DNA of 64,000 bases from Candidatus Collierbacteria bacterium UBA2277 (GTDB taxonomy: Bacteria > Patescibacteriota > Microgenomatia > UBA1400 > MFAQ01): positions 223,381 to 287,380 of the forward strand of contig DDWV01000001.1 in NCBI GenBank assembly GCA_002347045.1, read 5' to 3'. The notes under the pieces are model-generated. The model ran no database searches. It saw nothing but the letters and a program-made list of their open reading frames with translations, and was not told where the DNA came from. The first letter of the stretch is position 1; each line of letters opens with the position of its first letter. The position numbers were made by a program, and so were the translations under genes. Below, piece after piece: positions 1 to 62,203 of this stretch.

Positions 1-301
1 AAGTGTGTCTGAGGTAAGTATTATTACCTATGACAGTAAACCAATTGAACTATCAATATCTTCTCCTAAAGATGGAAGTGAGTTTTATGGAAAACTAAAT
101 CAAGTGATTGATATAAAGGGAGAAGTAGATAAGAAAAACAGCCAAGTACTTATTAATAATTCTTTTGTGACTCTTGACAGTAATGGAAGTTTTGTTCACA
201 GATTTATGCTTTCAGACGGGGACAACACTCTGACCATTAGAGCATCTGACAAAGCAGGTAACGTTGACGAAAAAAGTCTTAATGTGGTTTACTTTCCCTA
301 A
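1..301 (+). CDS. C-terminal fragment of a surface protein with bacterial Ig-like domain (5' end lies outside the window)
   Basis: ORF is open from the window edge. It carries a beta-rich Ig-like motif 'IRASDKAGNVDEKS', which resembles 'VTATDKAENFNS' at the C-terminus of the 885-aa protein at 10552-13209. Confidence 0.45.
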   Translation, partial: SVSEVSIITYDSKPIELSISSPKDGSEFYGKLNQVIDIKGEVDKKNSQVLINNSFVTLDSNGSFVHRFMLSDGDNTLTIRASDKAGNVDEKSLNVVYFP

Positions 302-1368
302 TCTTTCGAGAAAAGACCAAGGATAAACCAAAAATAAGCGAGTATCCATATATAAAAAAGACTGTTGTTGAATAAGCTATGTACGGCCAATGTAAAAATC
401 ATGGCAAGAAAAACAGAGTCATTTTTCCCTGATTTGATAACTTTGTATCCAAAATTAAAGAAAGATAGAGTGCCCATGGCACCAGTTGTTGCCATAAGCA
501 AGATGAAGCTGTTGTCTATGGATAGTCTGGCGCCAGAGGCAGACCTTAATGTGTTGTATCCCCAACCAAACAATGGTCTTTGAGAAAAGAGAATTATGCC
601 ATTTTTCCAACTTTGCAGTCTGGAAAAAATAGAAAATGTTCGAAGAAGATTAACTCCTTCCCCAAACGGTTTTGGTGACAAAAGAATACCAGCTCCAAGC
701 AATACCAAAGTAATAATAATCCTTTGTTTTTTTTGAAATATCATAAGAAAAATAATTCCCGACACAAAACAAACAAAAGAGGCTCTTGAAAAAGTAAGAG
801 TAAGTAACACAATAAATAGAATTGCTGGAAAATATTTCTTGTTTCCAATAAAAAATATGGCGGTACATGCAAATATAGCTCCAATGAAATTTGGATCATA
901 AAATGAACCAATCAAACGATAGTAGTGGTCGTCAAAACCAATATTTTTTAAATATCTCATGTCTGGAAAGACAAAATACTGACCTAAACTAAGCACTACA
1001 AAAATTCCAAGTGAAGCTAAAACTTGATTTTTTAGCCTTGCAATACCCACTTCTTTTACTGCGATAAAGATAGAAGGATAAATCAGTAAGCGAACAAGAT
1101 ACATCGATGAGGTTAGTATCCCCGAAGATATCGTTTGGCCATAGTTTGCAAACAAGGAAACGGTGGCAATGGTTAAAAATATTGTGTATGACGCCATAAG
1201 AGTTTTTGAAAAGTACCTCTTTCTCTTTGGAGAAACCACCAAATAGAGAAATAGGACAGCGACAATTAAATCCAAATAATATATCGTAAAGGGAAGAGAT
1301 GATGGTGACAGGGAGAGTAGCTGACCAAAAGGCCAGATGTAAAGAAGTAGTGTGAGTAAGAAAGTCAT
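298..1368 (-). CDS. Polytopic membrane protein, O-antigen ligase/polymerase-like (Wzy_C family)
   Basis: 356 aa with about 10 predicted TM helices and a central loop. It sits in a glycosyltransferase cluster, and a similar protein is found at 53590-54921. Confidence 0.5.
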   Translation of the reverse strand: MTFLLTLLLYIWPFGQLLSLSPSSLPFTIYYLDLIVAVLFLYLVVSPKRKRYFSKTLMASYTIFLTIATVSLFANYGQTISSGILTSSMYLVRLLIYPSIFIAVKEVGIARLKNQVLASLGIFVVLSLGQYFVFPDMRYLKNIGFDDHYYRLIGSFYDPNFIGAIFACTAIFFIGNKKYFPAILFIVLLTLTFSRASFVCFVSGIIFLMIFQKKQRIIITLVLLGAGILLSPKPFGEGVNLLRTFSIFSRLQSWKNGIILFSQRPLFGWGYNTLRSASGARLSIDNSFILLMATTGAMGTLSFFNFGYKVIKSGKNDSVFLAMIFTLAVHSLFNNSLFYIWILAYFWFILGLFSKD

Positions 1369-2699
1369 TTATTGTTAAGTTTAAATATTTGAATGCCGAC
1401 TATGTTGGTATGGACTAGTGTACCGTTTACTTCTGATTGGTCGGTGTTTGTAGTTATGAGGAAGTCGTAATCTTGTTCTGGGTTAGCCCATGAGGTGTGG
1501 TCAAAGTTGTGAGGGAAATAATATAAGTTGTGAAGCTTGTCTATAAGTATTCTACTTTCCTCAGGAATGTTGTTTTTTACGAATTCATCTGAGTCTATAA
1601 ATGTGTCAGGCAGACGACTTGCTTGAGTAGTGAGAAAGGTGTTTGTGTTTTGTTTGCCAAGTATGTAAGGAAAGTACTTTTTTACTGCTACGAACCTAAG
1701 TCCAAAAATCATGAGTGACGAAAGAATACACAACGACACAAATACACTAGCATATTTGTCTTTCATCTTGGAAACAAAAGCTACTGCTGCGATGATAATC
1801 GCAGGTAGATATGGAAGAAAATATCGACTGGACGGAGGATCTAAAACCTGGCTAAATATTGCGCCTAATAGCCCAATTTGAGAAATTTTTCTAACGTCTT
1901 TTTGTCTGCTATACAAAGAGAAAACCGCCATGATTACCAATACAAAAATCATAGGAGATAAAAAATCGTCGAAGGGAAAAGTAAGAGACAAAGGTAATAG
2001 AATTAACCTAGTGAAAATTTCCTGAAACGAAGAGAAAGCATTGTGAATAATGGTGTCAAAGATGGGATAAAGAGGATTGCCCGTGAATTTTTGGGCTATG
2101 AAAAACCAGGGGGACGAAATAATTGCGGCTGGTATTATCAAAATTGGCCCAAATACCAAAGCGTATATGGCCAGAGACCCAAGACTAAGCCATTTTGTAC
2201 CAATTGAAAGGCCAATAAAAATTCCTCCCTTTATCATTTTGCCTGAGACAAGATAGAGTAGGGCAACACTTTCTAAAAATGTCCTGAATAAATCTATGTA
2301 AGAGCTTCCCGACTGCCAACTTACTAGCCAAGTGCAATAAAACAACGAAACTGATACTGATTTGAGTATGGTAGAAAACTTAAGCCTGTCGGTGATTTTC
2401 CAAATAATAATACATGTGCCGACACCTGACAAAAACAGAAATGCTTTTGGTCCTATAAAGTCAAAGTATTTTATAAGTGGAATAAATAATGTTTCAGTAA
2501 TCCTGGGCATTACCGAGTAGTACAAAAGTCCTCCTTTGAAATACCATTGTCGCTTGAGAAGCCAGAGTTTTGGGAGAGTAAGATGATACCAGAGAGAGTC
2601 AAAACCAATCTCTGGAGAAAAAACAGTAACTATGTTTAATAGTCCAATCAGAATTATCGGAATCCATATCAAAATCAAGACTGTTTTTCTTTTTCCCAT
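1365..2699 (-). CDS. GT-C fold membrane glycosyltransferase, PMT_2/ArnT-like (GT39/GT83 family)
   Basis: 444 aa multi-TM protein whose N-terminal loop motif matches PMT_2 architecture. It overlaps its neighbours by 4 nt. A paralog-like gene lies at 52157-53593. Confidence 0.5.
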   Translation of the reverse strand: MGKRKTVLILIWIPIILIGLLNIVTVFSPEIGFDSLWYHLTLPKLWLLKRQWYFKGGLLYYSVMPRITETLFIPLIKYFDFIGPKAFLFLSGVGTCIIIWKITDRLKFSTILKSVSVSLFYCTWLVSWQSGSSYIDLFRTFLESVALLYLVSGKMIKGGIFIGLSIGTKWLSLGSLAIYALVFGPILIIPAAIISSPWFFIAQKFTGNPLYPIFDTIIHNAFSSFQEIFTRLILLPLSLTFPFDDFLSPMIFVLVIMAVFSLYSRQKDVRKISQIGLLGAIFSQVLDPPSSRYFLPYLPAIIIAAVAFVSKMKDKYASVFVSLCILSSLMIFGLRFVAVKKYFPYILGKQNTNTFLTTQASRLPDTFIDSDEFVKNNIPEESRILIDKLHNLYYFPHNFDHTSWANPEQDYDFLITTNTDQSEVNGTLVHTNIVGIQIFKLNNK

Positions 2700-3409
2700 T
2701 GAAAAATTCGAACTGATAATGATTGGACACTCATAAGATATGCTTGAAAGAGGCCAGCTAAGCCGTCCAAAAAGCCCATTCTGAAAATATAGTTCTGAAT
2801 AAATTTTGCCTTAGGGAGAAAAAATAATCTCCAGTAAGTAAAAGGTTTGTTTTCTTTTTCAAGAGATTTTGCGTCAATAAGTCCGTACTGTGCCATTCTG
2901 TCCGAGAACTCCGAGACGAAACTATCTTTAATATGATAAAGAGGAGAAACTATCTCTTTGATACTCCCCTTTACTTTCCATGTTTCATGGACAGGACGAG
3001 AAAATTTGCCTGAGTTTTTTCTTGCTAACCGTAGGATTTTAGTATGTCCTGTTTCGCCATGCAGTAGTGGTTGATGAAAGCATACATCTATCCTTGGGAT
3101 GAGATAGCCTCGATTTTCTTTTCTATTGATCACGCTTTGTATTTCTCTGGCAAGCTCTGTGCCAACATACTCATCGTCGTCCACAAACAGAACCCAATCG
3201 CTTTTCGCCTTTTGTAGGGCAAAGTTTCTTTGATCTGCAAAATTTGAGTTAAGAGGCCTGAATATGTGTTTTATGATCCCTTTTTTATATTCATTTTTGT
3301 ACTTATCTGTGTCTGTTATAACCAGTATTTCGTCTGCAAAAGAAATCGATTTTAGCAACAAGCCAGGTATCTCCTCTTTTTTAGAAAGTATTACTACAGA
3401 TAATGACAT
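2675..3409 (-). CDS. Family 2 glycosyltransferase
   Basis: N-terminal 'VVILSKKEE...DEILVITDTD' followed by the DxD-type 'VDDDEY' motif. Confidence 0.6.
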   Translation of the reverse strand: MSLSVVILSKKEEIPGLLLKSISFADEILVITDTDKYKNEYKKGIIKHIFRPLNSNFADQRNFALQKAKSDWVLFVDDDEYVGTELAREIQSVINRKENRGYLIPRIDVCFHQPLLHGETGHTKILRLARKNSGKFSRPVHETWKVKGSIKEIVSPLYHIKDSFVSEFSDRMAQYGLIDAKSLEKENKPFTYWRLFFLPKAKFIQNYIFRMGFLDGLAGLFQAYLMSVQSLSVRIFQWEKEKQS

Positions 3410-4548
3410 TAATGTGAGACTCGACTACTAACTTTCCCTGATAAAACCTGGGAAGGGACTTCGACCAGCCGATATACCAGATATGAAACGGCTGTGGCAA
3501 CGATTGTCGAAATAACAAATAGAGAGATATGAATTATCAGATAGCTATCTTTGTATGGAAGGTTAGGAAAATTTACAAACATAGCTTTACTGATTAAATA
3601 GAGCACAGAGAAATGTATCAGATATAAACTATATGAAATTTTTCCAAAGAACTTGAAGACCTTTCCGTCGAGAAAATTGAAAATGGTTACTTTTTGACTG
3701 AATGCCGATATGCCAATGATAAAAAATGAAATTATGGCTTCAACTACTCCACCAGTGTACTCATTGGTTAGATAGCGGAAGCTTAAAAAGAGGACAATCA
3801 TTAGAGGCGCTAGGACGTGGACAGTCCAGTTTGGAATACCTATAAAAAAACTTTTGAACTTGGGAATAGAAAGACCAAGATAAAACATATAAAGATAACG
3901 AAGATCTCTAAAGTTGTCGATTTTAAAAACAGTAAAACTGAGATAAATTAAGAGTAAAGTGATACAGATGTCTATCCACCAAGATGTTTTATTGTTTAAT
4001 AAGAAAAATACAGGAAACAGTATTGAGGCAATTACAATTACACGAAGAGTCCAGGTGACACCTCCTGTGTATGTATTAACAAGCATTAAATTTAGAACAA
4101 ATTCTTTAGCCGTCATTTGAAAGTTCATCCACCAGTTGAACCATGGAGAAGAGGCGGGAAATGTCTGGTGTACAAAAATGGTGTTCATGTATATCGCTGT
4201 CAAAATGACGATGAGAATATAGACAGGATACAAACGAATTAGTCTTTTTATTAAAAATGACATTAGACCTCGAAAGTTGAACTTTACTTTTGCCAAGGAT
4301 GGACCCAAGACAAGCCCAGACAATAGAAAGAAAAGAGTCACGGCAGCACCTCCGTTGCCAAGAACCATAAGTAACTGCTGGATTTTACTCTGAGGGCTAT
4401 TGAACAAAAGGGGGTTCTGTTTCCAAACATTTGCAAAGCTGGGTATTGAAACTACAAGAAAGGAGTGATTTAGAGCAACAATAAGTGAAAGCAAACCACG
4501 CAAACCGTCAAGCTTTGTAAATCGTGTGGTATTTTTAGCTTCCATCAT
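3409..4548 (-). CDS. Acyltransferase family 3 (membrane O-acyltransferase)
   Basis: 'FTKLDGLRGLLSLIVALNHS' N-terminal signature and about 10 TM helices. Confidence 0.7.
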   Translation of the reverse strand: MMEAKNTTRFTKLDGLRGLLSLIVALNHSFLVVSIPSFANVWKQNPLLFNSPQSKIQQLLMVLGNGGAAVTLFFLLSGLVLGPSLAKVKFNFRGLMSFLIKRLIRLYPVYILIVILTAIYMNTIFVHQTFPASSPWFNWWMNFQMTAKEFVLNLMLVNTYTGGVTWTLRVIVIASILFPVFFLLNNKTSWWIDICITLLLIYLSFTVFKIDNFRDLRYLYMFYLGLSIPKFKSFFIGIPNWTVHVLAPLMIVLFLSFRYLTNEYTGGVVEAIISFFIIGISAFSQKVTIFNFLDGKVFKFFGKISYSLYLIHFSVLYLISKAMFVNFPNLPYKDSYLIIHISLFVISTIVATAVSYLVYRLVEVPSQVLSGKVSSRVSH

Positions 4549-4565
4549 CTTGTATTATAGAGTCA

Positions 4566-5447
4566 ATGAGAGATTTTCGAATACAGACTTTACTTAATTG
4601 CTGGAAAATAGTCAAGAAAAAAGAAATGCCGATTGGGAATTTGTTGGCTTATTCATGGCTTTGGATTAAACCTGCAAAGAGAAAAAAAATAAAGGCCAAT
4701 AAGATGTTTGACCTTAATGACTTCCCCATTCTGAAATATAAATCGTACGAGCTAGCAAAGTTTGATCCATTGTGGTTCCCTAGACTTTTTGAGCCAACCA
4801 CTTTAGGAATACGAACTTGGGAGTATGGTTTGCTACTGGAAAGTACCGGGTTTAGAAAAAAAACTGTTTTGGATGCCGGGTGTGGAAACAGCAGGCTTCC
4901 TCTTTTTTTAGCCAAGAAAGGCGCCAAGGTGACTCTTCTTGACATGAATGACCCCCTAGAAAAAACTGTGGTCAAAAGACATAAAAACCTGAGGTTTGTC
5001 CTTGGTGATATGACCAGGCTAAAGTTCTCAGACAATCACTTTGATAGAGTAATTTGTATCTCTGCAATTGAACACGTGGATATGAAATCTGGTGGAGATT
5101 TTTTTTCAGAAAAAGAATATATTTCTCGTGCTCTTAAAACTATCAAAGAACTAGCTAGAGTTACAAAAGCTAAAGGCGTATTTTATCTAACAACTGACTT
5201 TTATTTACCAAGGCAAGACACGGATAAATGGCCTGGTTCAAAAGACATAATTAGAGGAGCTTTTCCGTGGAAATGTTTGCCTCTTTTTGTGAAGGAAATG
5301 AAAATGAATGGTATCAATTTGGACAGAGAGCCAGAGATAGATGAGGGAATTTTAGTTAGATCAAAGAGTAGAGCAAATTACCGTGGTAGATATTTTACGA
5401 CAGTTTCTTTTAGGGGAGTAAAGTCTTTGCTCGCAAGTAAAGATTGA
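4566..5447 (+). CDS. Class I SAM-dependent methyltransferase (start codon uncertain, may be internal)
   Basis: Motif I 'VLDAGCGNSRL' and acidic 'LLDMND'. Confidence 0.55.
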   Translation: MRDFRIQTLLNCWKIVKKKEMPIGNLLAYSWLWIKPAKRKKIKANKMFDLNDFPILKYKSYELAKFDPLWFPRLFEPTTLGIRTWEYGLLLESTGFRKKTVLDAGCGNSRLPLFLAKKGAKVTLLDMNDPLEKTVVKRHKNLRFVLGDMTRLKFSDNHFDRVICISAIEHVDMKSGGDFFSEKEYISRALKTIKELARVTKAKGVFYLTTDFYLPRQDTDKWPGSKDIIRGAFPWKCLPLFVKEMKMNGINLDREPEIDEGILVRSKSRANYRGRYFTTVSFRGVKSLLASKD

Positions 5448-6213
5448 ATAACAAATAGAATGGCAAACTTGTGACAGGAAGGTGTCTGCGACAAAATCTA
5501 AGATGACTATTGGCTAGAATAATCAATTTTTTCTTACCTAGTTTGTTTGTACTCATAGAAAGATGGTGGAATATCTTTACCGATGGACAAAATCCTAAAC
5601 AAAATCCTTTTTCGACAGCCCTTAGGCAATAGTCTGCATCCTCGTAGTAGAGAAAAAAACCATCATCCAACTTTCCTGCCACATCTAGAACTACCGAAGG
5701 AATCAAAAGACAAACGCCAGAAAAATAATCTGGTCTAATATTTGTGTTTTTACTTAGGTGATAGTTTCTTCCAAAAAACATGTCTACTTTGCCACCATAG
5801 TCATAAACAGCTTTTCCTTTGTCTTTGTACTCTACTTTTGGTGAGATAATGTCCCCTTTAGTTTTCAAAAGCTTTTGGAGAAAGTCTTTACTTTCTACGG
5901 TTGCGTCGTTGTTTATTAGCAAGACGAAGTCTGCCTTCATTTTCTTGGCGTAATCTAGACCTAGATTATTCCCCCCAGCAAAACCTAGATTTTTCTTTGA
6001 AAATATAAATTTTACCTTTGGAAATTTCTTATTTAGATTTCGTGACTCTTCTTCTACGGATCCGCAGTCGACAACTAGTAAGGTTAAGTCTATGCCGTCT
6101 TTGTTTATACCCTTAAACGACTTAAGACAGTCTTCTGTAAGGGCTGCGTTGTTGTAATTTACTGTAATTACTATAATTTTTTTATTTCTTTGTTTCATAA
6201 AATATTTTTTCAA
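5410..6213 (-). CDS. Family 2 glycosyltransferase
   Basis: 'IIVITVNYNN...LLVVDCGS...LINNDATV' GT2 signature. Confidence 0.7.
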   Translation of the reverse strand: MKKYFMKQRNKKIIVITVNYNNAALTEDCLKSFKGINKDGIDLTLLVVDCGSVEEESRNLNKKFPKVKFIFSKKNLGFAGGNNLGLDYAKKMKADFVLLINNDATVESKDFLQKLLKTKGDIISPKVEYKDKGKAVYDYGGKVDMFFGRNYHLSKNTNIRPDYFSGVCLLIPSVVLDVAGKLDDGFFLYYEDADYCLRAVEKGFCLGFCPSVKIFHHLSMSTNKLGKKKLIILANSHLRFCRRHLPVTSLPFYLLFNLYLRAKTLLP

Positions 6214-7276
6214 GTTTCGAGACTGTCTTTTCCCAAGTAAAGAATTTTTTTACTGCCTCTACCCCATTTTTCCCCATCTCTGACTGAAGTTCGCTGTTTG
6301 ACAATAGCATAGATATTGAGTCGGCAATTTTTTGGGGGTTTCTTTCTGTAAGCAGGCCTGTCTTTTTGTGAGTGACTGTTTCCCTAAAGCCTCCCTCACA
6401 AACAGCAATCACAGGTGTTCCGCAAGCCATAGACTCAACTACTGACAGGCCAAAAGGCTCTAAATGCGCTAAAGCTAGAGTGACTCTTGATTGATTGTAA
6501 ACTGTACATAGATCTTTTTGGCTCAGACTAAGAAGTAGTTTGATATCAACCCCTTTCTTTTTGGCAAAATTGACAATTGGCTTCATACTATTCTTTCTGG
6601 GTGAGGCGATAACTAATACTGGTCTAATTTTCTTATCCACCAAAGAGACTGCTTCTATAGAAAGCTTTAGATCTTTTTGCGGTTCATTGTTTCCAATGAC
6701 TAGAAGTTGATTTTTCTTGGCTATTTTTTTAGGGAAGTATTCTTTGGGGTCAACTCCTAAGTGAACTGGAATTGCATTTACTCCATAACTTCTAAATATG
6801 GACTCTACTGAGAAATAAGAGTTTGCTACTGTAACAGTGGCTTTTTTGGCACTAACTATTTCGATGTTTTTTCTGACTTGACGATTAATTTTCTCGTATA
6901 TTCTGTTTGGCAACGGAAGACTCGGGTCTATTTTTAAAAATTCTTCAAAGAGTGCTCGAGTTGGCTCCTGACAAAGAAAAACTGTAGGAGTTTTTAGGAA
7001 CCTTAGGATCCAGGGGGCCTGTGAATGTCTGTCGTGAGATACAAAACAAAGGTCAAAGTTTTTCGAGTCGATGTGTTTGGCAAGTTTGCGTTGCTTTATT
7101 CTTTGCAAAATAATAGATTCAAGATCAATAAACAGTCTATTCCGACTGGTCCACTTGGAGTTTTTTGGATCAGAAAAGAGTGTTATTTTATGTTTCTTGT
7201 TCAAAAGTTTCTGAACTTCTTCCATAGTTCGCGACGCTCCTCCTGAAGGAAGGTCTGAAAAGAAAGCGATCTTCAT
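6182..7276 (-). CDS. Family 4 (GT1-fold) glycosyltransferase
   Basis: C-terminal 'EPFGLSVVESMACGTPVIA' motif. Confidence 0.7.
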   Translation of the reverse strand: MKIAFFSDLPSGGASRTMEEVQKLLNKKHKITLFSDPKNSKWTSRNRLFIDLESIILQRIKQRKLAKHIDSKNFDLCFVSHDRHSQAPWILRFLKTPTVFLCQEPTRALFEEFLKIDPSLPLPNRIYEKINRQVRKNIEIVSAKKATVTVANSYFSVESIFRSYGVNAIPVHLGVDPKEYFPKKIAKKNQLLVIGNNEPQKDLKLSIEAVSLVDKKIRPVLVIASPRKNSMKPIVNFAKKKGVDIKLLLSLSQKDLCTVYNQSRVTLALAHLEPFGLSVVESMACGTPVIAVCEGGFRETVTHKKTGLLTERNPQKIADSISMLLSNSELQSEMGKNGVEAVKKFFTWEKTVSKLEKIFYETKK

Positions 7277-8577
7277 TCTCTTTCAATTGCCATCATCTCC
7301 TTTGTAAAAATTCGCCAAGTTACAAACAAAAAAGGTGGCACGGTAATAACTGAAGCCAAGAGGACACCGTATGCGACACCAACCACTTGATATTTTGGAG
7401 TTAGTATTAGGATTAAAATTATTTCTGTGACAACGGTAAAGACAGCAAAAAATGACGGAATTTGAGGTTTGTTCAAACTTTGTAAAAGGACTGAAGGAAT
7501 GGGTGTGAGAGCTGTGAGAACAAAATATATACTTAGGATTTTTAAGACGGGATATGCCGCCTCAACCACGACGGCGTCTTTAAGCCACCACATGAGGAAT
7601 TCTTTTCCAACTGAGAAGGACAGAAAAATGGCCAAGATGCCACCGATAAAGGTAAGTAACTGAATAGCAATTACTGAAGCCCTGAGCTTTCTAACCCTTT
7701 GCTTTTCCAGCAGTGATGTACCAAGTGGAAAAAAAGCTTGAGCAACTTGTGAGACTACTCCAGCCCCTTTGGCGACAATACTCTGGGGGATACTAAATGC
7801 AGTAATTGCCTGAGCTGAAACCATTACCCCTAAAGCATACTTGGAAAACTGGGCTTCGATTTGACTTGCAAGAGTTCCAACAAAGTTTTTGAGACCAAAA
7901 CCAACCAAAATTTTGCCTTCATTTTTGTAAAATTTTGGCAAGAAGTTCTTACCAGAAAATATTCTAGAAGAATAACGAGCCATAAAGATAAGTGTAAGTA
8001 TATGGAAAACTAACTGAAGAAGGAAAATGAGTGAGATATCAGGATAGTAGCCAGAAAATATTGCCGAGAGAATTGTGTTGGCAGACCCTACGAGAAGAGT
8101 TTTTGAGTTGAACACATCAAACCTTTGTTCTGCTTGAGGAAGACTTAGTAAGTGTGAGTTGATGTGGTTTATGAAAACGGTAATTGTCAGTATTAGAATT
8201 GTAAGGTTTAGCGTTAGTGGGTTCACGTTTTCAAGCAGTGGCAGTGAGTTGCTAAGGTATATTAAGATTGCAGAGATAAGCAAGGAAAGAACTATGCCGA
8301 TTATTAAGAAAAGACTAAAAGATGTTTTCCATGTCTGTATCCTTTCGCTGTCTTTTAAATTTGGAAGTGAAAGGCGGCGAACAACAGCGTTTGATATACC
8401 AAAATCAAATACGGAAGCAAGTGGAACTATAGAGCCTAAAAATAGATACACTCCAAACATATCGCTGCCAAGATTTCTAAGTAGTATGGAGATAGAAAAA
8501 AAACTAGCTAGTAATAGATAGACATAGCTTGCTAGATTAAATCCTGTGTTTTTAATTAAGCTTTTTTTTAGTGACAT
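7273..8577 (-). CDS. Wzx-like oligosaccharide flippase / polysaccharide biosynthesis protein (MOP superfamily)
   Basis: 434 aa with about 12 TM helices and a Wzx-like N-terminus. It is embedded among glycosyltransferase genes. Confidence 0.6.
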   Translation of the reverse strand: MSLKKSLIKNTGFNLASYVYLLLASFFSISILLRNLGSDMFGVYLFLGSIVPLASVFDFGISNAVVRRLSLPNLKDSERIQTWKTSFSLFLIIGIVLSLLISAILIYLSNSLPLLENVNPLTLNLTILILTITVFINHINSHLLSLPQAEQRFDVFNSKTLLVGSANTILSAIFSGYYPDISLIFLLQLVFHILTLIFMARYSSRIFSGKNFLPKFYKNEGKILVGFGLKNFVGTLASQIEAQFSKYALGVMVSAQAITAFSIPQSIVAKGAGVVSQVAQAFFPLGTSLLEKQRVRKLRASVIAIQLLTFIGGILAIFLSFSVGKEFLMWWLKDAVVVEAAYPVLKILSIYFVLTALTPIPSVLLQSLNKPQIPSFFAVFTVVTEIILILILTPKYQVVGVAYGVLLASVITVPPFLFVTWRIFTKEMMAIERE

Positions 8578-9659
8578 GAAATTTCTTCGTAGATTTTTTT
8601 TATTTTTTTGGCAGTTTTTTGACAGTTAAATCTTTCCTCAGCCCTTTGACGGGAGGCGATTGAAAGGGATTGCCTTAGATTTACATTATAAATGAGTTTC
8701 TCTAGGTTTGTTTTGAGTTCGTTGATATCTGAATGTCGAGATATGAGAGCAACATCTCCGCATACTTCAGGAATTGCGCCGCTATTTGTAGTAACTATAG
8801 GAAGTCCGCAGGCCATTGCCTCTAGAAGGCACATGCCATACTGCTCCTTCCATGTTTTTGTTTCCCTGCTTGGTAAGCAGAAAATGTCTGCTTTTTGGTA
8901 CTCTTTTTGAATTTGATGGTAGGGGATTGATTTTACAAATACGTTTTTGAACCCTACTAATTCTGATTTTAGCGGTCCGGAGCCAACGAAAGTAAGATTA
9001 ATTTTTTGATTATTTTCTTTGAGTGACAGGAATGCCTTTAAAAGATCCCCTACACCTTTTTCCGGAACGAGTCTGGCCACACATAAAATATTTACTTTTT
9101 TAGTTTTCTTTGCCGATAGATTTGGTTTGAATTTTTTGAGATCAATACCCATGTTCACTACGGATATTTTTGCTGGCGATACCCCCTCTTTGATTAGAGC
9201 TTGCTTGGCTTTTTCGGTGACGGCAATGAAATGATCGATGTTTTCGTATGCCATTCTTTTATACTGTTTTCTTCCTTTTATACTTTCATTACTAAAGGGT
9301 ATTATTTCCCAAACAGTGCTAACGACCCTCCTTACCATTCCCCTTCTCTTGGCCACAACAGCTTGATATGTATATCCATAATATGTTTCTGCTACGTGGA
9401 CAATATCCGATCCTTTTATCATTTTTTCAAGTCCAAATAGCCTATGGGCGTCTACAAATATTCTGTTGAGCACTGGATACTTGTATGGAAAATTTGGTAG
9501 ATCTGTAGGTGACCATAATTTTTCCAATGGCAAATCGATATTGCTTGATATGGGATGTTTTGAGGAATACACTGAGATTTCGAATGATCTTCTTAGACTG
9601 CTGTAGTTTTGAAGCTCAAAAGGGTTTAAAAAGGCTCCTCTAACGATTGATATTTTCAT
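8568..9659 (-). CDS. Family 4 glycosyltransferase
   Basis: 'EQYGMCLLEAMACGLPIVTT' motif. Confidence 0.7.
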   Translation of the reverse strand: MKISIVRGAFLNPFELQNYSSLRRSFEISVYSSKHPISSNIDLPLEKLWSPTDLPNFPYKYPVLNRIFVDAHRLFGLEKMIKGSDIVHVAETYYGYTYQAVVAKRRGMVRRVVSTVWEIIPFSNESIKGRKQYKRMAYENIDHFIAVTEKAKQALIKEGVSPAKISVVNMGIDLKKFKPNLSAKKTKKVNILCVARLVPEKGVGDLLKAFLSLKENNQKINLTFVGSGPLKSELVGFKNVFVKSIPYHQIQKEYQKADIFCLPSRETKTWKEQYGMCLLEAMACGLPIVTTNSGAIPEVCGDVALISRHSDINELKTNLEKLIYNVNLRQSLSIASRQRAEERFNCQKTAKKIKKIYEEISCH

Positions 9660-10522
9660 GTCCCAATTGACTTCTTCGTAATAATAATTAAATCATCAAT
9701 AAGGAATATCGTTTGTATCAATATATTTTTTACTACTCCAAAATGCTTTAAAAAATATTTTTTTCTTGACCACAACCACGAAGAATGCCTTATCCTATCC
9801 TTATTCTTACTGCTTGCCCCTCCGACATGAAGTATCTCTGATTTACTTGAATAGTAAATTTTATATCCAGCATTTTTTGCTCTCAGACAAAAATCAACAT
9901 CTTCTAAATACATAAAAAATGATTCATCAAACAATCCAACTTTGTTAAACAATGATCGCTTAACTAGCATATAGCCTCCTGTTATAACATCTACTGTAAA
10001 TGAGCTGTTTTGTTTTCTGTCTTGATAGTAGAAATATTTGTGCCATTTGTCATCACGGCGAAGTTTTCTAAAATTTGTAAAGTCGAAAATTCCAACCATC
10101 AAATTTGGAAATCTGAAATGAGAACCGCTTACCCTTCCCTCGTTGTCAATGGTGGCTCCCCCACATATTCCGGCATTATTTTTTTTAGCGCTATCAACCA
10201 AATGAAATAGTGAATTTCTCCTTAATATGGTGTCTGGATTCAATAACAGAACGTATTCACCATTGCTCTCTTTTATTCCCTGATTAACAGCGCAAGCAAA
10301 TCCAGCATTAACTTTATTTTTTAACAGTGATATGATTTTAAATCTTTTTTGTAACTTTAAGATTTTGATTACTGTGAGATCTGATGAGCAATTATCAATG
10401 ACAATTATCTTAGAGATTTCAAAATTTTTATTGTCGCTGTTTACAACAGATTCTATGCATTTATTTATATATCTTTCTGAATTAAATGTTACAATGATGA
10501 TTGTAAGGTTTGATTTTTGCAC
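9656..10522 (-). CDS. Family 2 glycosyltransferase
   Basis: 'LTIIIVTFNSERYI...IIVIDNCSSD...LLLNPDT' GT2 signature. Confidence 0.7.
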   Translation of the reverse strand: MQKSNLTIIIVTFNSERYINKCIESVVNSDNKNFEISKIIVIDNCSSDLTVIKILKLQKRFKIISLLKNKVNAGFACAVNQGIKESNGEYVLLLNPDTILRRNSLFHLVDSAKKNNAGICGGATIDNEGRVSGSHFRFPNLMVGIFDFTNFRKLRRDDKWHKYFYYQDRKQNSSFTVDVITGGYMLVKRSLFNKVGLFDESFFMYLEDVDFCLRAKNAGYKIYYSSKSEILHVGGASSKNKDRIRHSSWLWSRKKYFLKHFGVVKNILIQTIFLIDDLIIITKKSIGT

Positions 10523-10551: not shown

Positions 10552-13209
10552 ATGAAGTCCTGCATTTTGCTTCTTGTTGGGGTGATTATTGGAATCATAA
10601 CACTTTTTGGAATTCCAAAAACAGTTTTTGCTAATTATGATCTTAATGATAATTTTTCGTTTCTAAATAATTCAGTTTGGAATTTTATAAATAACAACGA
10701 AAATATTGAGATTGTCGACGACAATTTACGTTTAAGCGCTGCTAGTGGTTATAAATTCCCTTTTGTTACCCTTAAAAATAAATTGGATCTTGGAGACAAA
10801 TATATTATTGATTTAAGGTTTAAGTTTTCTGGTAATCTTTCGTATGGTAATGGAATTGTTTTTTCGCACATCACTCCATCGAATAACTCTTCAAAAGAAC
10901 TAGATTCAACTAACGTGATATTTCAAATATGGCCAAAAACTAGTGCCATCTGGGGTATTTGGTCACCCTTATGCGACTCAAGAGTGTCATTTTGTGTTGA
11001 TAATAAAAAATTTGAAGTACCGCTCTCCTCAACCCAGGCTACTTCAAACGAATGGCACGAAGTTAAGATAATTTACGAAAATAATACCTACAAAGTTAAT
11101 GTAGATAACACGTTGGTATTCAGCTCACTTAATACAGATTTGGGAATTACTGATATTTGGTTTGGAAACTATGAAAAATTGTTAACAGTTAATTCTTGGC
11201 CTAACTTATACATTGATTACTTATATGTTTATGATGATGTTGCAGAAAATGAACCTACGATAATTATTCCTGGGTTGGGAGCTAGTTGGGACTTGGGCGC
11301 TATGCTTACAGGTACGGATGGTAATAATTGGAATATTCCAAGTTTTATAAATGAATATGATGGACTAAAAAACTCTTTTATAAAAGCAGGCTACTCTGAA
11401 ACTGATGACCAGAATCTCTTTACATTTTCATATGACTGGAGAAAACCGTTGTCTGTTTTAGCCGAACGTTTAAATTCATTTATTGAAGACAGGGTTCCAA
11501 GTGGAAAAATTAATATTGTTGGACATAGCATGGGAGGACTAGTTGCCAGGGCGTATGTGGATTCTTACGGAGATACTAGAATCAATAAAATTGTTGCGGT
11601 TGGATCTCCAAACATGGGGTCAGTAAAGGCTTATGGTCCGTGGGAGGGAGCCACTGTTTGGGATGGTGCATGGTGGACGAAAGTTGCTCTAGATATTACT
11701 ACTCATTTTGGCGTTTTACCTGGAGAGCTGCCTGTTGATACTGTTCAGAGAAAGGTGCCTTCTTTAAAGGATCTTCTCCCAACTTACGATTTTTTAGTTG
11801 ACTCAACTAACTCAACTATTTCTTCATCTTCACTTATCCACAAGAATGATTATTTAAATTCACTTAATCAAAGTTCTGCTCTCAAAGGAGGAAAACTTAC
11901 GACGATTACCAGTCAGGACATACAAACTGAAAAACTTTTGAGGGTCGTTGCCCCTTCTAGTGAAGATGTATTAAATAATTTATGGACGGATGGAAAACCT
12001 TCAGAAACTGATCCATTTGTTTTTGTTGCGGGAGATGGTGTAGTAGTAAATGATAGTGCAAGAGGATTGTTTGATAATAACGTATTTGGAAATGGATGGC
12101 ATGGAGAACTTATTTCTCAAAAAAGAAATATTGAGAAAATATTTAATGTCCTTGGTTTGGATCCAAAGTTTGCTGTTGATGGAACAAGCGACAATAGACC
12201 TAATGTGTTTGTTGCGGCACTAAAATCTCCTGGGGAATTAGTAGTATGCGATTCAGATGATAATAAATGTGGTGATGATCTCGGTTTGTATTTTGATGAG
12301 GAAAAGCTATTTTTGTTGCCTGACTATAATAATCAGAGTTTAAAAATTCGCATTAAAGAAAAGGGCACCGGTTCTTACAGCCTCCACTTGGGAAATATTA
12401 ATGATGAATCAAATTGGATAGTAGCAGGTGGAAGACTGGATAGAGTTGGAGAGGTAGATTTTTTTGATATCTACAGTGATGGACACAGCTTGACAGCAAT
12501 CCAAGACACAACACCACCGAGCACCCCCCAAATATCTGGCTTTATCAATCCGACACTGGGATGTGGTGCAAGTACTCAGCTGCACACCATAACTGTAGAC
12601 TGGACAGATTCATGGGACAAAAATGGAGTACCCGGCTATGAATACAACGTAAACTATCCCATTGGGAATTTGAGGAAGGATTGGAGCACATTTTTTACTA
12701 CTTCTCAGTACAAAGGATCACTAAATGAAGGCGTTCACTATATAAAGGTTAGAACCAGAGATCTCGCTGGAAATGTGTCTGAGTGGTCGAATACATGTAG
12801 TATCACAGCTGACTGGACACCACCTAGCGTGACGATTGAGTCACCGAGTGAAGGAGTATACCAGTCGAAGTCTTTACCAGGCTTAAAATACACCGTAATT
12901 GACAATCTTGATGAGTCTCCTGTTGTAACTGTGACTGGATGGTCAAAGGAAAATGGCGAGCACACAGTAACAGTGACGGCAACAGATAAGGCAGAAAACT
13001 TCAACTCCGCATCAATTACCTATACTATTCAAAATCAAAAGCCAAAACCAGATTCAGATATGTGCAAAAAGAATGGCTGGAGAACGTTTGGACTATTTAG
13101 AGTCTTTCGTTTTAGAAATCAGGGAGAGTGTGTGAGTTATTTCAACAGAATGGAGCGTTTGAGAATAGTTACATTGAATAACTTGAAACGTTTGGGGTGG
13201 AGGAAATGA
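10552..13209 (+). CDS. Secreted multidomain protein: signal peptide, LamG/ConA-like lectin domain, alpha/beta-hydrolase lipase domain (PGAP1/LCAT-like, GHSMGG nucleophile elbow), C-terminal Ig-like repeats
   Basis: Signal peptide 'MKSCILLLVGVIIGIITLFGIPKTVFA'. Lipase motifs 'IIIPGLGASWD' and 'IVGHSMGGLVARAYV'. Ig-like domains 'TTPPSTPQISG' and 'DWTPPSVTIESPSEG...VTATDKAENF'. Cys-containing C-terminal tail. Confidence 0.6.
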   Translation: MKSCILLLVGVIIGIITLFGIPKTVFANYDLNDNFSFLNNSVWNFINNNENIEIVDDNLRLSAASGYKFPFVTLKNKLDLGDKYIIDLRFKFSGNLSYGNGIVFSHITPSNNSSKELDSTNVIFQIWPKTSAIWGIWSPLCDSRVSFCVDNKKFEVPLSSTQATSNEWHEVKIIYENNTYKVNVDNTLVFSSLNTDLGITDIWFGNYEKLLTVNSWPNLYIDYLYVYDDVAENEPTIIIPGLGASWDLGAMLTGTDGNNWNIPSFINEYDGLKNSFIKAGYSETDDQNLFTFSYDWRKPLSVLAERLNSFIEDRVPSGKINIVGHSMGGLVARAYVDSYGDTRINKIVAVGSPNMGSVKAYGPWEGATVWDGAWWTKVALDITTHFGVLPGELPVDTVQRKVPSLKDLLPTYDFLVDSTNSTISSSSLIHKNDYLNSLNQSSALKGGKLTTITSQDIQTEKLLRVVAPSSEDVLNNLWTDGKPSETDPFVFVAGDGVVVNDSARGLFDNNVFGNGWHGELISQKRNIEKIFNVLGLDPKFAVDGTSDNRPNVFVAALKSPGELVVCDSDDNKCGDDLGLYFDEEKLFLLPDYNNQSLKIRIKEKGTGSYSLHLGNINDESNWIVAGGRLDRVGEVDFFDIYSDGHSLTAIQDTTPPSTPQISGFINPTLGCGASTQLHTITVDWTDSWDKNGVPGYEYNVNYPIGNLRKDWSTFFTTSQYKGSLNEGVHYIKVRTRDLAGNVSEWSNTCSITADWTPPSVTIESPSEGVYQSKSLPGLKYTVIDNLDESPVVTVTGWSKENGEHTVTVTATDKAENFNSASITYTIQNQKPKPDSDMCKKNGWRTFGLFRVFRFRNQGECVSYFNRMERLRIVTLNNLKRLGWRK

Positions 13210-13212: not shown

Positions 13213-13243
13213 AAAAACCCACCTAAATAGGTGGGTTTACTTT
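13213..13243. terminator. Bidirectional intrinsic terminator
   Basis: AAAAAAA-CCCACC-TAAATA-GGTGGG-TTT: a 6-bp GC-rich stem flanked by an A-run on one side and a T-run on the other. It lies between convergent genes. Confidence 0.6.
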
Positions 13244-37744: not shown

Positions 37745-38113
37745 TTAAAGAATAGTTAGTATTTTTGGTAAAAAGATTAGCAAGGCGATGATCACTGAAA
37801 ATGATGCGGAAACAAGAACCATTCCGGCGGCGACATCTTTTGCTATTTTGGCATCAGTCCTTCTCTCGAGTGATATTAGATCTACCATGGCCTCGATAGA
37901 GGTGTTAAGCATCTCAGCCACGACAACCATGTTTATGGTGAATATCAAAATTAACCACTCTGTCATTGAAATTGAGAGGTAAATTCCTAAGATAACAACA
38001 GCTGATGAAGCTAAAAGATGAAAGCGAAAGTTTGGCTGAGTACGAACCGAGTGTAAAAAACCATCAAGTGCGTGTTTAAAACTTACTCTGTGGATCCTAA
38101 ATGGATTTTGCAT
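37745..38113 (-). CDS. dgkA: DgkA-family lipid kinase (diacylglycerol/undecaprenol kinase)
   Basis: 122 aa, 3 TM helices, 'SIEAMVDLISLERRTDAKIAKDVAAGMVL' DgkA motif. Confidence 0.7.
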   Translation of the reverse strand: MQNPFRIHRVSFKHALDGFLHSVRTQPNFRFHLLASSAVVILGIYLSISMTEWLILIFTINMVVVAEMLNTSIEAMVDLISLERRTDAKIAKDVAAGMVLVSASFSVIIALLIFLPKILTIL

Positions 38114-44156: not shown

Positions 44157-46058
44157 CTAATTTAGAATTACTTCTTGATCTTGATCTAGCTCTAAGACAG
44201 TCTCGTGTCCATTGAAGATGATTGTGTGCTTTATGGCCGGTGTTCCAGGCTGTTTCTGAATAAGCATTCTATAAATAGACAGATCTAAAGCTGGAAGTTC
44301 GTATTTGAAGACAATTTTACTTTGGCTTTGTGGACGCATAGTAAAGAAAGCTTCAAAGACTGTTTTGTCTAAATCTTCAGAAACTGTCTCTTTTACTTCA
44401 GAACCAACTACTGAGATTAAATTACTACCTTTTGGAACAAAGAGTCGAATGTAGTCACGATATGTGCCATTTAGACATAGTTTTCCTGCCTCAAGATTAC
44501 AGTTGTCTCCTTTTGTGGGATTGCTATAACTGATACTAACTGTTTTTGTAACAATACCGTTTGAGAGCTCAATTTCTTGTTCAACTTCACGAGTGATAAA
44601 CATGTCCGTCTTGGCGCCTCCAAGGTTAGCATCGTTAACGTGAAGATAGTCATAATCGTAAGAGGTAATTCTTCCTGCGGCGTTGAAATCTTCGGCGACC
44701 TTTTGGGTCTCGTCCTCAAAGAAGTAAAAGAGTAGATGTTTTTGCTTGATAGAGTCAAGCGCAACATTTAGAAGTTTTGGCCAAAGGTGTTTTGGACTTC
44801 CCATGGCGTTTGCCATCATTGAGTGCATAAGGGGTCCAAGGACAGTCTTTCGCCCAGTTCTAATGGTGTTTGTTGGCCTGTCAACGATTTCTTCCAAAGC
44901 ATACACCACCTGAGGACAGTTACATCGAGGATCTATCTCTGCACTGAAGTTCCCCCAACCGCCGACTCCAATTGGCCCTATCACTTTTAATATTTCGACT
45001 GGAAGCTGGGTGTCAATGGCGATAATTCCGTCGGGACGAATCATACCGGGGATGTCGTTGTAGTACTTGGTGAATGTGTCCATGGAAACTTTAAAGTCCG
45101 GTGACATGTTTGCGTTGCGTAGGTTTAAGTAGGTCTCGTTTAGATACTTTTTGATGGCGTCTGGAGCGGGAACCTTTTTTGTAAATCGTGCATCAAGGTC
45201 GTATATGTCATATGAGGAAAGTAAGTCTATCTTTCCTTTGGAAACCTTCATAAAAGAATAGGCAGTAAGGAAGCCTCCTGTGGGTCTTAACTCGGCGTCA
45301 TTTTGAAACAAAATCATGTATGTTTTTGGATCAGGGTTACCAAGTAAATCAGGGAGAAGCTTGATGAGTGGTTTTGCTTGAGTTAGTAGCTGGGCAGACT
45401 CCCCTATGGTTGACTTTACGGAAGTAATTTTGCTACGTACCTGTTTACCTCTTATTTCTTTGGGGTATCTGTTTTCGTCGATCATGGCAAGTTCTTTTTG
45501 AGCCATCTCCATTTCGGCACCAACCTTGTCTAGGTCAGGGCTAATCAAGTCTAAAGTCTGAGCCATAAAAACAATTCTGTCTTCGATAGACTGTGCTTTT
45601 GGTAATTCTCCGGAAGGGGTGGCTTCGTCAGTTTTAAAGCCTAGCAAGTCCGCGTACGGAGAGACTGAGACAATAAGTATGTCGACTGCTGTAGCAAGTG
45701 ACTTGCTGGCGTTGATTGCACGCTGTCCATCTTTTGAGTAATTTCCCAAAAGAGGAATGGCAAAGGTCCAGCGAACTTTCTGATACTTTGAGTCGAGATT
45801 GTCTATTTGTTCGGAAAGAGTTTTTACTTCAGTCTTGGCTTGAGCTAAGTCTTGATTTTGAAAGGCCTCAGAAAGTCGTCCTCCAGTAGCCTGCATATCT
45901 GCGACTGATGGCATAAGAGACTTTGCGGTGAAGTATCCATACGTTCCTGTAACAATTACAAGTAGCAAGACTACAGCTAACGGGATAAAAAAGTATAAGT
46001 ATTTCTTCTTCAAAAAGCTTAGAACGTTCTTTATTGTCATTTTTATTTTTGTTACCAT
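44157..46058 (-). CDS. DUF4012-domain membrane-anchored protein
   Basis: N-terminal TM helix and 'FQNDAELRPTGGFLTAYSF' motif. It overlaps the downstream sugar transferase gene by 7 nt. Confidence 0.55.
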   Translation of the reverse strand: MVTKIKMTIKNVLSFLKKKYLYFFIPLAVVLLLVIVTGTYGYFTAKSLMPSVADMQATGGRLSEAFQNQDLAQAKTEVKTLSEQIDNLDSKYQKVRWTFAIPLLGNYSKDGQRAINASKSLATAVDILIVSVSPYADLLGFKTDEATPSGELPKAQSIEDRIVFMAQTLDLISPDLDKVGAEMEMAQKELAMIDENRYPKEIRGKQVRSKITSVKSTIGESAQLLTQAKPLIKLLPDLLGNPDPKTYMILFQNDAELRPTGGFLTAYSFMKVSKGKIDLLSSYDIYDLDARFTKKVPAPDAIKKYLNETYLNLRNANMSPDFKVSMDTFTKYYNDIPGMIRPDGIIAIDTQLPVEILKVIGPIGVGGWGNFSAEIDPRCNCPQVVYALEEIVDRPTNTIRTGRKTVLGPLMHSMMANAMGSPKHLWPKLLNVALDSIKQKHLLFYFFEDETQKVAEDFNAAGRITSYDYDYLHVNDANLGGAKTDMFITREVEQEIELSNGIVTKTVSISYSNPTKGDNCNLEAGKLCLNGTYRDYIRLFVPKGSNLISVVGSEVKETVSEDLDKTVFEAFFTMRPQSQSKIVFKYELPALDLSIYRMLIQKQPGTPAIKHTIIFNGHETVLELDQDQEVILN

Positions 46059-46702
46059 TTACTAATCATAGCAAAAGGGGTTTTTAATAAGATATATAGA
46101 TCATAAATGATAGAGCGACGCTGAGCATAATCGGCGTCGATGGCCACTCTTTGATTCCAAGGAATTTCGTTTCTTCCAGAAACCTGCCACGGACCAGTGA
46201 TACCTGGCTTGGCAGAAAGGCTTTTTTTAATTAAACCTTTTACGTTTTTGCCATAGCGTTTTTTGGCGTCTTCTAGCTCAGGTTTAACGTAAGCTCTTGG
46301 ACCAACAAGGCTCATTTCTCCAGAAAGAACATTAAACACTTGAGGCATTTCGTCGATACTTGTTTGGCGTAGTATTCTCCCTAACTTTGTAATACGAGGA
46401 TCTTCATTTATTTCTAGCTTCCAGCCATTCCGTTTGTATTTTTCAAATATCTCGGGGTTTGCCTTCCAAAACTCAACTGCATGAGCTGCTTTACCCGCCA
46501 CTTCAAACATCTTCATAGATCGAAACTTAAACATATTGAACTTTTTACCGTTTTTCCCAACTCTTTCTGGCTTGTAAAGAATTGGCCCTTTAGAGTCAAG
46601 ACTAATTAGGATTGGAATTATTATCCAGATTGGAAGAAACAAAACGGCTAGAATTGCTGACCCAATAATATCAATCAATCTTTTGATAAAGTCGTAAAAC
46701 AT
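46052..46702 (-). CDS. Initiating phosphoglycosyl transferase (bacterial sugar transferase, PglC/WbaP C-terminal-domain type)
   Basis: Single TM helix, 'KFRSM' and 'SIDEMPQVFNVLSGEMSLVGPRA' motifs. Confidence 0.8.
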   Translation of the reverse strand: MFYDFIKRLIDIIGSAILAVLFLPIWIIIPILISLDSKGPILYKPERVGKNGKKFNMFKFRSMKMFEVAGKAAHAVEFWKANPEIFEKYKRNGWKLEINEDPRITKLGRILRQTSIDEMPQVFNVLSGEMSLVGPRAYVKPELEDAKKRYGKNVKGLIKKSLSAKPGITGPWQVSGRNEIPWNQRVAIDADYAQRRSIIYDLYILLKTPFAMISKW

Positions 46703-62201: not shown

Positions 62202-62203
62202 TT

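Follow-up and report, generated by a model that had tools for sequence, protein, structure and literature searches.

A Collierbacteria glycan locus that resembles Gram-positive surface polysaccharide loci and carries a conserved four-gene core

Introduction

In monoderm bacteria, polymers of the cell surface are decorated outside the membrane by transmembrane glycosylation systems, in which adjacent genes encode a GT-A and a GT-C glycosyltransferase (GT) that act with a GtrA- or Wzx-type flippase; many of these GT-C enzymes belong to PMT_2 (PMC8035078, PMC5836110). In the pellicle pathway of Lactococcus lactis, a small GT2 starts the chain on undecaprenyl monophosphate, with no phosphoglycosyl transferase (PGT), and strain-specific transferases extend it (PMC9574508). 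The chain is flipped by a Wzx-type protein, polymerized by WpsI with its membrane-anchored extracellular partner WpsH, and attached by a GT-C to a conserved rhamnan made from separate genes; WpsA/B, WpsG and WpsJ (GT2, flippase and GT-C) are conserved in this locus, while the GTs in its middle are variable (PMC9574508). Here we analyse a ten-gene locus, called island 1, in a stretch of 64,000 nucleotides of contig DDWV01000001.1 of Candidatus Collierbacteria bacterium UBA2277 (the whole stretch is called the window). By analogy with the L. lactis pathway, we give an about even chance to the reading that island 1 directs the synthesis of a wall or surface polysaccharide of the Gram-positive type and includes a GT-A/GT-C pair.

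Collierbacteria and Levybacteria are two candidate phyla, both Microgenomates of the Candidate Phyla Radiation (CPR). Microgenomates cells were reported to have no outer membrane (PMC7137472, summarising cryo-EM work). There is almost no experimental knowledge of the cell envelope of CPR bacteria (Patescibacteria), which live attached to other microbes and rely on surface contacts, and our search for published work on CPR with O-antigen ligase or glycosyltransferase returned nothing relevant. The closest named homologues of the GT-C protein of island 1 are from Candidatus Collierbacteria and the distant ones, 28–35% identical, from Levybacteria; a sequence identical to it is present on a 646,801-bp contig of JGI metagenome 3300040971. 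With about even confidence, we regard island 1 as the Collierbacteria form of a locus for surface-glycan assembly that is conserved in Microgenomates. Many species-representative genome records with this CPR locus bear the titles 'uncultured Pseudomonadales' or 'uncultured Gammaproteobacteria', in conflict with the Collierbacteria and Levybacteria identity of their close relatives, and these titles look unreliable.

A quartet of genes is conserved beside a variable cassette

Island 1 was compared with 79 loci of species-representative genomes, fetched around homologues of the GT-C protein (1.25 Mb in total), and all their open reading frames (ORFs) were clustered; loci are called testable when the contig is long enough to show the neighbours of the GT-C gene. 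The four widest clusters are those of the GT-C (81 loci), of a small GT2 called GT2a (74), of the Wzy_C protein (74) and of a small Ig-like protein, Ig229 (71), and the next cluster is present in only 46. The order GT-C, then Wzy_C, then the convergent Ig gene is found in 63 of the 64 testable loci of Collierbacteria and Levybacteria. Of 54 loci, 51 have GT2a upstream of the GT-C gene at a distance of at most 4.5 kb, and in 39 the two genes are directly adjacent. An initial reading of this DNA, made from the letters and ORF translations alone (the sequence-only reading), had tied the small Ig-like protein to the island, and this tie is borne out, as it is kept at GT-C identities as low as about 30%, with changing flanks. 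The sole testable locus with a GT-C homologue and no Wzy_C and Ig genes after it is L066 (CAYTYO010000007.1).

Collierbacteria have guanylate kinase and PIF1 helicase genes at the flanks, Levybacteria have the ATP synthase operon there, and the quartet is retained from the former into the latter despite the change of both flanks. In no relative does the island lie beside a lipopolysaccharide (LPS)-core locus, its flanks being housekeeping genes; together with the reported lack of an outer membrane in Microgenomates, this supports the earlier opinion, which was against a classical O-antigen locus. The neighbourhood could in principle be coincidental, unrelated glycosylation functions being kept together by inherited synteny with the Ig genes as bystanders. 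Collierbacteria genomes are indeed broadly collinear around the island, and a lipase-like neighbour, described below, behaves as a bystander. However, the quartet persists in Levybacteria with both flanks and most other island genes different, and start/stop overlaps throughout indicate two compact operons, which makes a chance assembly very unlikely.

The genes that vary among relatives encode methyltransferases, a radical-SAM enzyme, a nucleotidyl (NTP) transferase, a carbamoyltransferase, extra GT2 and GT4 enzymes, GT87 proteins, GT2–PMT fusions and polytopic proteins with no Pfam match. The acyltransferase (at the same position), the flippase type, one GT4 (GT4b, which scores 400–630 bits in related loci) and the lipase-like neighbour are conserved in Collierbacteria only. 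GT4a is absent or replaced in several relatives, and the presence of the methyltransferase varies between related loci. The GC content of island 1 is 3–4 points below that of the rest of the window. A conserved module beside a variable cassette of sugar genes is the pattern expected of a surface structure selected by hosts or phages. In some relatives, extra polytopic proteins are encoded between the quartet genes (for example L041:8802-9956, L030:1462-2874 and L047:7940-9664); the inserted proteins are a GT87-family GT-C (102 bits) and Pfam-less proteins of 350–590 amino acids (AA) with 7–10 helices.

Gene content of island 1

The features are listed in Table 1. All ten ORFs of the sequence-only reading exist, and each of the families assigned to them is supported by Pfam, by a structure match or by an orthologue: the HMM search recovered Wzy_C, three GT2, two GT4, Acyl_transf_3 and the SAM-dependent methyltransferase directly. 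The ORFs fill the island with overlapping or abutting start and stop codons, and the methyltransferase gene alone is on the plus strand. The flippase is below threshold on its own (MatE 23.1 bits, WZX_like 18.6). Its orthologue L002:4652-5959, which scores 556 bits against it, passes Polysacc_synt with 50.2 bits, and it was therefore assigned as a MOP-family Wzx protein, in agreement with its first annotation; being the only Wzx-type flippase in island 1, it could serve polymer export or a lipid-linked single sugar. Sequence and profile searches of the GT-C, Wzy_C and flippase proteins against the PDB gave nothing useful.

Table 1. Coordinates and annotation of island 1, its neighbours and the initiating transferase of island 2 (window positions)
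Feature	Position	Strand	Evidence
Ig229, 3' end (last 99 codons)	2..301	+	Pfam Glucodextran_B, Big_13, Big_6
Wzy_C, WaaL/Wzy-fold membrane enzyme, 356 AA	298..1368	-	Pfam 43.2 bits, cutoff 31.7
GT-C-fold glycosyltransferase, 444 AA, ArnT/PMT_2-like	1365..2699	-	AlphaFold and Foldseek; orthologues pass PMT_2
GT2a, small soluble GT2, 244 AA	2675..3409	-	Pfam GT2 34.5 bits, partial match
Acyl_transf_3 membrane O-acyltransferase, 379 AA	3409..4548	-	Pfam 87.2 bits
SAM-dependent methyltransferase, 293 AA	4566..5447	+	Pfam Methyltransf_11/25/31
GT2b, 267 AA, rhamnosyltransferase-like	5410..6213	-	Pfam GT2 44 bits; NCBIfam rhamnosyltransferase 61 bits, below cutoff
GT4a, 364 AA, variable part of island	6182..7276	-	Pfam Glycos_transf_1 108.6 bits
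MOP-superfamily (Wzx-type) flippase, 434 AA, about 9 or more membrane helices	7273..8577	-	Orthology
GT4b, 363 AA	8568..9659	-	Pfam Glycos_transf_1 103 bits
GT2c, 288 AA, one C-terminal membrane helix (residue ~263)	9656..10522	-	Pfam GT2 93.8 bits
Neighbour: 885-AA protein, LamG-like, lipase/LCAT-like hydrolase and two Ig-like domains	10552..13209	+	Pfam
PGT, small Bac_transf type, 216 AA, heads glycan island 2	46052..46702	-	Pfam Bac_transf 196.8 bits

The GT-C enzyme and its GT2 partners

The GT-C protein has no Pfam match and no PDB sequence match, singly or as a profile. Its AlphaFold model, built from 33 homologues (pLDDT 86.7, pTM 0.88), predicts a polytopic GT-C fold with a small C-terminal extracytoplasmic domain, and its best Foldseek match is ArnT (5f15, E 3.8e-7, TM 0.62), followed by STT3, ALG9, ALG6, ALG3, PimE, EmbB and AftB. 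The PMT/ArnT-like label given to it by the sequence-only reading is thus right at the level of the fold. In addition, Levybacteria orthologues pass PMT_2 (28.7 and 27.1 bits, cutoff 26.1), and two homologues bear precomputed GT87 or PMT matches. Residues E30, D34, W37, Y38 and H39 are invariant in the 33 homologues and stand directly after the first helix (residues 3–26), and GT-C enzymes bear catalytic acidic residues in this region, the first outer loop. Profile comparison detected no relation between this family and the PMT_2 protein of island 2 (see below).

GT2a has no predicted membrane helix. The characterised proteins nearest to it are the GT2 domain of GmaR (PDB, E 1.6e-8), which O-GlcNAcylates flagellin, and, with 53 bits and thus far below cutoff, peptide glycosyltransferases of the SunS type. 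GT2c-type enzymes of Levybacteria are fused to a PMT_2 GT-C or encoded directly upstream of one, and GT2c is therefore a candidate polyprenyl-phosphate sugar synthase. Two such fusions of about 730–750 AA, with an N-terminal GT2 and a C-terminal PMT/PMT_2 part, are encoded by L080:100-2358 and L080:6797-8980, and the two parts are separate adjacent genes in other Levybacteria.

The initiating transferase is absent from all related loci and present in a second island

The sequence-only reading had found neither an initiating PGT nor a chain-length regulator. This holds for island 1, as Pfam and NCBIfam scans of its proteins gave no PGT and no Wzz/PCP match, and no scanned ORF of the window has a Wzz-family Pfam match; the window as a whole does, however, contain one PGT of the Bac_transf type, 35 kb from island 1 (NCBIfam EPS_sugtrans, 247 bits). 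In the 79 related loci there is neither a Bac_transf homologue (phmmer, E up to 10) nor a MraY- or WecA-like ORF, so that the lack of a PGT is a conserved property and not an accident of this genome.

Using the PGT of the window as anchor, 80 metagenome loci were fetched. The PGT is 75–87% identical across Collierbacteria whose GT-C proteins share only 53–65%, and its context is constant in the fetched loci: RecO, DUF4012, PGT, nucleotidyl transferase, GT4, GT4, GT2, GT4, PMT_2, Wzy_C, GT2 and onward. In a Collierbacteria contig of 1.09 Mb it is separated from the equivalent of island 1 by about 309 kb. This constant context and this distance assign the PGT to a separate locus, island 2 (44157–64000 in the window), which encodes DUF4012, the PGT, the nucleotidyl transferase, five GT4, three GT2, a hexapeptide acyltransferase, an epimerase, a PMT_2 protein (52157–53593) and a Wzy_C protein (53590–54921), and which is collinear across Collierbacteria, with higher conservation than island 1. 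The portion of island 2 that lies within the window encodes no flippase that could be recognised, so that the flippase of island 1 might be shared. A polytopic protein of 479 AA with about 8 helices (59168–60607, minus strand) is also encoded in island 2; it has no Pfam match and does not resemble the flippase of island 1.

The absence of a PGT had been taken as a pointer to a dedicated protein or S-layer glycosylation module. This argument falls, since the PGT is missing from every related locus and that of the window belongs to island 2. Moreover, the PGT-less layout is documented for the wall polysaccharide pellicle of Lactococcus, not for a glycoprotein (PMC9574508). That one highly conserved PGT is carried by a separate conserved glycan locus rather suggests a two-locus envelope glycan system.

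The Wzy_C enzyme has an Asp in place of the ligase His

The Wzy_C protein of island 1 has both a Wzy_C domain and a WaaL-like fold. It is predicted to act as a polymerase or as a ligase, two functions that sequence and fold cannot separate, and its PDB matches include no Wzy polymerase for comparison. R195 and R250 align with R215 and R288 of Escherichia coli WaaL and occur in 73 and 72, respectively, of the 75 sequences in the alignment, with gaps in the others; the profile alignment with WaaL is weak (probability 13%), yet in register over 280 columns. The ligase motif is defined in the WaaL literature as H[NSQ]X9GXX[GTY], in which the His is catalytic. The island protein reads D285-N-X9-G296-XX-G299, with an Asp in place of this His in 68 of 72 orthologues, and the Wzy_C protein of island 2 likewise has an Asp at this position. 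The argument that a Wzy_C protein conserved across variable loci should be a ligase was dropped, as island 2 also encodes a Wzy_C protein and is conserved even more strongly.

If the enzyme acted like pneumococcal TacL or like WaaL, it would ligate the exported chain to a membrane glycolipid, giving a polymer of the lipoteichoic acid (LTA) or lipomannan (LM) type that one or more GT-C enzymes would extend or decorate outside the membrane, as for mycobacterial LM and lipoarabinomannan (LAM). TacL provides a precedent: in a monoderm, this Wzy_C protein joins a chain exported by Wzx to a glycolipid (PMC5727136). Related loci encode several GT-Cs (PMT, PMT_2 and GT87), as do actinobacterial lipoglycan pathways, and no LCP gene for attachment to peptidoglycan was seen in the window. 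Against such a lipoglycan, no glycolipid-anchor synthase was identified, the matches of the GT4 enzymes to such families being far below cutoff, the His of the ligase motif is replaced by Asp, and the conserved Ig protein is left with no role. CPR bacteria also probably scavenge lipids, which disfavours a dedicated lipid anchor. We consider this product improbable.

Ig229 and the question of a protein acceptor

The full Ig229 gene was seen in L001. It encodes a protein of 229 AA with a basic N-terminus, one membrane helix that forms an N-terminal anchor and two extracytoplasmic Ig-like domains, and it is convergent with the Wzy_C gene, which it overlaps by 4 nucleotides. The family has 207 database matches, and the best 120 of these 207 are all of 228–262 AA, with no fusion of the Ig module to Wzy_C, to GT-C or to another domain. 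The sequence-only reading had placed the island between two genes for Ig-like surface proteins with a common TDKA(E/G)N motif. For Ig229 this stands. The 885-AA protein on the other side is mainly a LamG-like protein and a lipase-like hydrolase (Pfam Abhydrolase_1, LCAT, Palm_thioest, Big_13 and Big_3_3; GHSMGG motif) with two C-terminal Ig-like domains, and its gene flanks the island in Collierbacteria and not in Levybacteria, a weak match in L037 excepted. This secreted or anchored protein probably lies outside the glycan pathway. The motif is real, as the pattern [STA]D.A[GE]N has two sites only in the six frames of the window, TDKAEN in the 885-AA protein and, in Ig229, SDKAGN rather than TDKAGN; such a D.A[GE]N-type motif is an ordinary signature of Big_13-type Ig domains. 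The Ig modules of the Ig229 ectodomain and of the C-terminus of the 885-AA protein align with 26% identity over 198 AA (E 1.8e-7) and are distantly homologous. After its Ig domains, the lipase-like protein ends with a basic, aromatic tail (window 13066–13209), KKNGWRTFGLFRVFRFRNQGECVSYF...

The constant neighbourhood of Ig229 and Wzy_C speaks in favour of protein O-glycosylation, in which the Wzy_C protein would be an O-oligosaccharyltransferase of the PglL, WsaB or TfpO type that transfers the flipped lipid-linked oligosaccharide, or the PMT_2-like GT-C would start the glycan, with Ig229 and perhaps further proteins with this two-Ig module, such as the 885-AA lipase, as targets. Enzymes dedicated to one protein are often encoded beside their target, as for pilin with TfpO or TfpW, and the association of Ig229 with Wzy_C is kept although the flanks differ. 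The retention of both WaaL arginines and of the spacing of the ligase motif, the protein or peptide substrates of the nearest characterised relatives of GT2a, and the module common to Ig229 and the lipase point in the same direction. In addition, A68 and T69 are invariant in an alignment of 29 Ig229 sequences, within a segment LP-x-A-T-N-S-A at the start of Ig domain 1. Gram-positive S-layer loci offer a precedent, with Wzy_C O-oligosaccharyltransferases and a GT2 and GT-C-type lipid-linked branch system (WsfH/WsfD; Paenibacillus; PMC2943079). Several observations do not fit, however. The His that is essential in WaaL and in PglL is the residue replaced by Asp here, and the same Asp is found in the Wzy_C protein of island 2, which has no Ig neighbour. 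No island protein has a tetratricopeptide repeat (TPR) match, and there is no TPR partner; the lipase is unlinked outside Collierbacteria; the Ig module is fused to neither enzyme among the best matches; and the ATNS segment sits where such Ig domains are usually conserved for structural reasons. LP-x-ATNSA was kept as a candidate acceptor site only, the equivalent position being also conserved in the pattern of the second Ig domain. Taken together, protein O-glycosylation appears rather unlikely.

A related scheme, to which we give a low probability, is a protein-anchored glycocalyx, in which the GT-C, the WaaL-like enzyme with Asp for His, or both would attach the variable glycan to membrane-anchored Ig229 as the glycan anchor of the cell. 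Ig229 would then replace the lipid anchors (LPS, LTA, lipomannan) of bacteria that synthesize their lipids themselves, which would suit lipid-scavenging CPR cells. An Ig229 that is the acceptor would be an unusual dedicated glycoprotein anchor. An Ig229 that is a partner subunit would be a new kind of accessory protein for Wzy/WaaL-fold or small GT-C enzymes, a gap named in reviews of Gram-positive GT-C enzymes (PMC8035078).

A possible assembly pathway

In the polysaccharide reading that we prefer, the GT2 and GT4 enzymes would assemble, in the cytoplasm, an O-methylated and O-acylated oligosaccharide on a polyprenyl-phosphate carrier; we infer this carrier, and the donor and acceptor of each membrane enzyme below, from the layout of the locus. 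With no PGT in the island, priming might be carried out by a GT2 on polyprenyl monophosphate, as by WpsA or GacI, or by the PGT of island 2 if it is shared. The MOP flippase would export the lipid-linked unit. Outside the membrane, the WaaL/Wzy-fold enzyme, probably with Ig229 as extracytoplasmic partner, would join lipid-linked units, and the ArnT/PMT_2-like GT-C, paired with the adjacent GT2, would use a polyprenyl-phosphate donor to add a sugar or a chain to the final acceptor. The most likely product would be a wall or surface heteropolysaccharide of the Gram-positive type, perhaps attached to the polymer of island 2, as in the dual-chain rhamnan/pellicle pathway of Lactococcus. Island 1 corresponds gene for gene to the L. 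lactis scheme, with island 2 as a possible source of the conserved acceptor polymer; the comparison with the Wps proteins is one of published layout and roles.

Several points weigh against this pathway. GT2a is unlike known polyprenyl-phosphate sugar synthases (GtrB, DPM1), its closest characterised relatives being those that glycosylate proteins or peptides, and island 1 encodes no small membrane protein of the GacJ/WpsB or GtrA type. Enzymes of the WaaL/Wzy type normally use diphosphate-linked donors, which need a PGT; that of island 2 would therefore have to be shared with island 1, and the link between the two islands is circumstantial. Ig229, with one membrane helix and beta-sandwich domains, is unlike Wzz or WpsH, and its co-transcription with Wzy_C is ruled out because the two genes are convergent. 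Finally, neither an LCP ligase nor a PCP was found among the window ORFs scanned.

The enzyme families of island 1 are all known, and as a whole it follows the logic of surface polysaccharide loci in Gram-positive bacteria. What is new is an invariant quartet that includes a bitopic Ig protein, the WaaL-like enzyme with Asp for His, the constant absence of a PGT, and the pairing, in a CPR lineage, with a second island that is conserved and bears the PGT. The quartet, namely a GT2, a GT-C, this WaaL-like enzyme and the bitopic Ig protein, is a compact marker that can be searched for.

Other genes of the window

The remaining genes of the window include a reduced dcw cluster (MraZ, MraW, PBP, MraY, FtsW, MurG, FtsQ, FtsA and FtsZ), RodA, ParB, L27 and IleRS, and the gene content outside the islands fits a small monoderm-type genome. 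Between its PBP and MraY genes, the dcw cluster contains a DAGK_prokar gene (37745–38113, minus strand), possibly for an undecaprenol or diacylglycerol kinase. A promoter scan gave no enrichment (41 sites for 41.4 expected), and a bidirectional terminator at 13215–13238 is the sole convincing signal of the promoter and terminator scan. The C-terminal half of a protein of 207 AA (13248–13871, minus strand) matches Pfam Tad4, a Type I Thoeris inhibitor (80 bits, E 1.9e-22), with no NCBIfam match; on this CPR chromosome its gene lies between the lipase-like gene and that of a signal peptidase.

Comparison with known systems

The S-layer slg loci of Paenibacillus alvei and Geobacillus stearothermophilus resemble island 1 in having a Wzy_C protein in a monoderm glycan locus, a low GC content, a variable middle, and a GT2 with a second, lipid-carrier-dependent transferase for a branch sugar (WsfB/WsaB, WsfH/WsfD, WsfP/WsaP; PMC2943079). 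They differ from it in having their own initiator (WsaP/WsfP), export by an ABC transporter, and O-oligosaccharyltransferases that have or recruit TPR motifs; their target is a large S-layer protein, as opposed to an anchored Ig protein of 229 AA, and no S-layer-like protein is linked to island 1. TacL of Streptococcus pneumoniae is a Wzy_C protein of similar size, from a bacterium that has no outer membrane, and acts after Wzx export (PMC5727136), but its gene context, its glycolipid acceptor pathway and its separate polymerase have no identified counterparts at island 1. The O-antigen ligase WaaL (PDB 7tpg/7tpj; E. coli K-12) has the catalytic His338 where the island protein has Asp, and this organism probably has no LPS; the island protein is also shorter and has no sequence-level match to any PDB chain.

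ArnT (PDB 5f15/5ezm), the best structural match of the GT-C protein, has the same fold and conserved acidic residues in the first outer loop. Identity is only about 10%, however, the outer soluble domain of the island protein is much smaller, lipid A is probably absent here, and donor synthesis of the ArnC/ArnT type is not evident. The CsbB/GtcA/YfhO, GacI/J/K/L and GtsA/B/C systems of monoderms (PMC8035078, PMC5836110) also have a GT-A gene side by side with that of a PMT_2-type GT-C and a polymer as extracytoplasmic acceptor, and a Wzx-type flippase is possible in them (GacK); they add single sugars, whereas the pair of island 1 is embedded among five more transferases and a Wzy_C protein, with no GtrA-type flippase.

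In comparison with the L. lactis cwps locus (WpsA/B, WpsC-F, WpsG, WpsI/H, WpsJ; PMC9574508), the polymerase candidate of island 1 has a WaaL/Wzy_C fold instead of the GT-C fold of WpsI, and Ig229 has one helix and two Ig domains where the lactococcal partner has two helices and a Wzz-like loop. Island 1 encodes no WpsB/GacJ-like small membrane protein, GT2a has no detected similarity to polyprenyl-phosphate sugar synthases, and island 2 is not an ABC-transporter rhamnan locus. Neither locus has a classical PGT, and both keep a GT2 that is small and soluble, a flippase of the Wzx type and a GT-C around GTs that vary. Both encode a polytopic polymerase with a membrane-anchored extracellular partner (candidates in island 1), and in both organisms there is a second conserved locus with its own initiator, which makes the acceptor polymer in L. 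lactis and may do so here.

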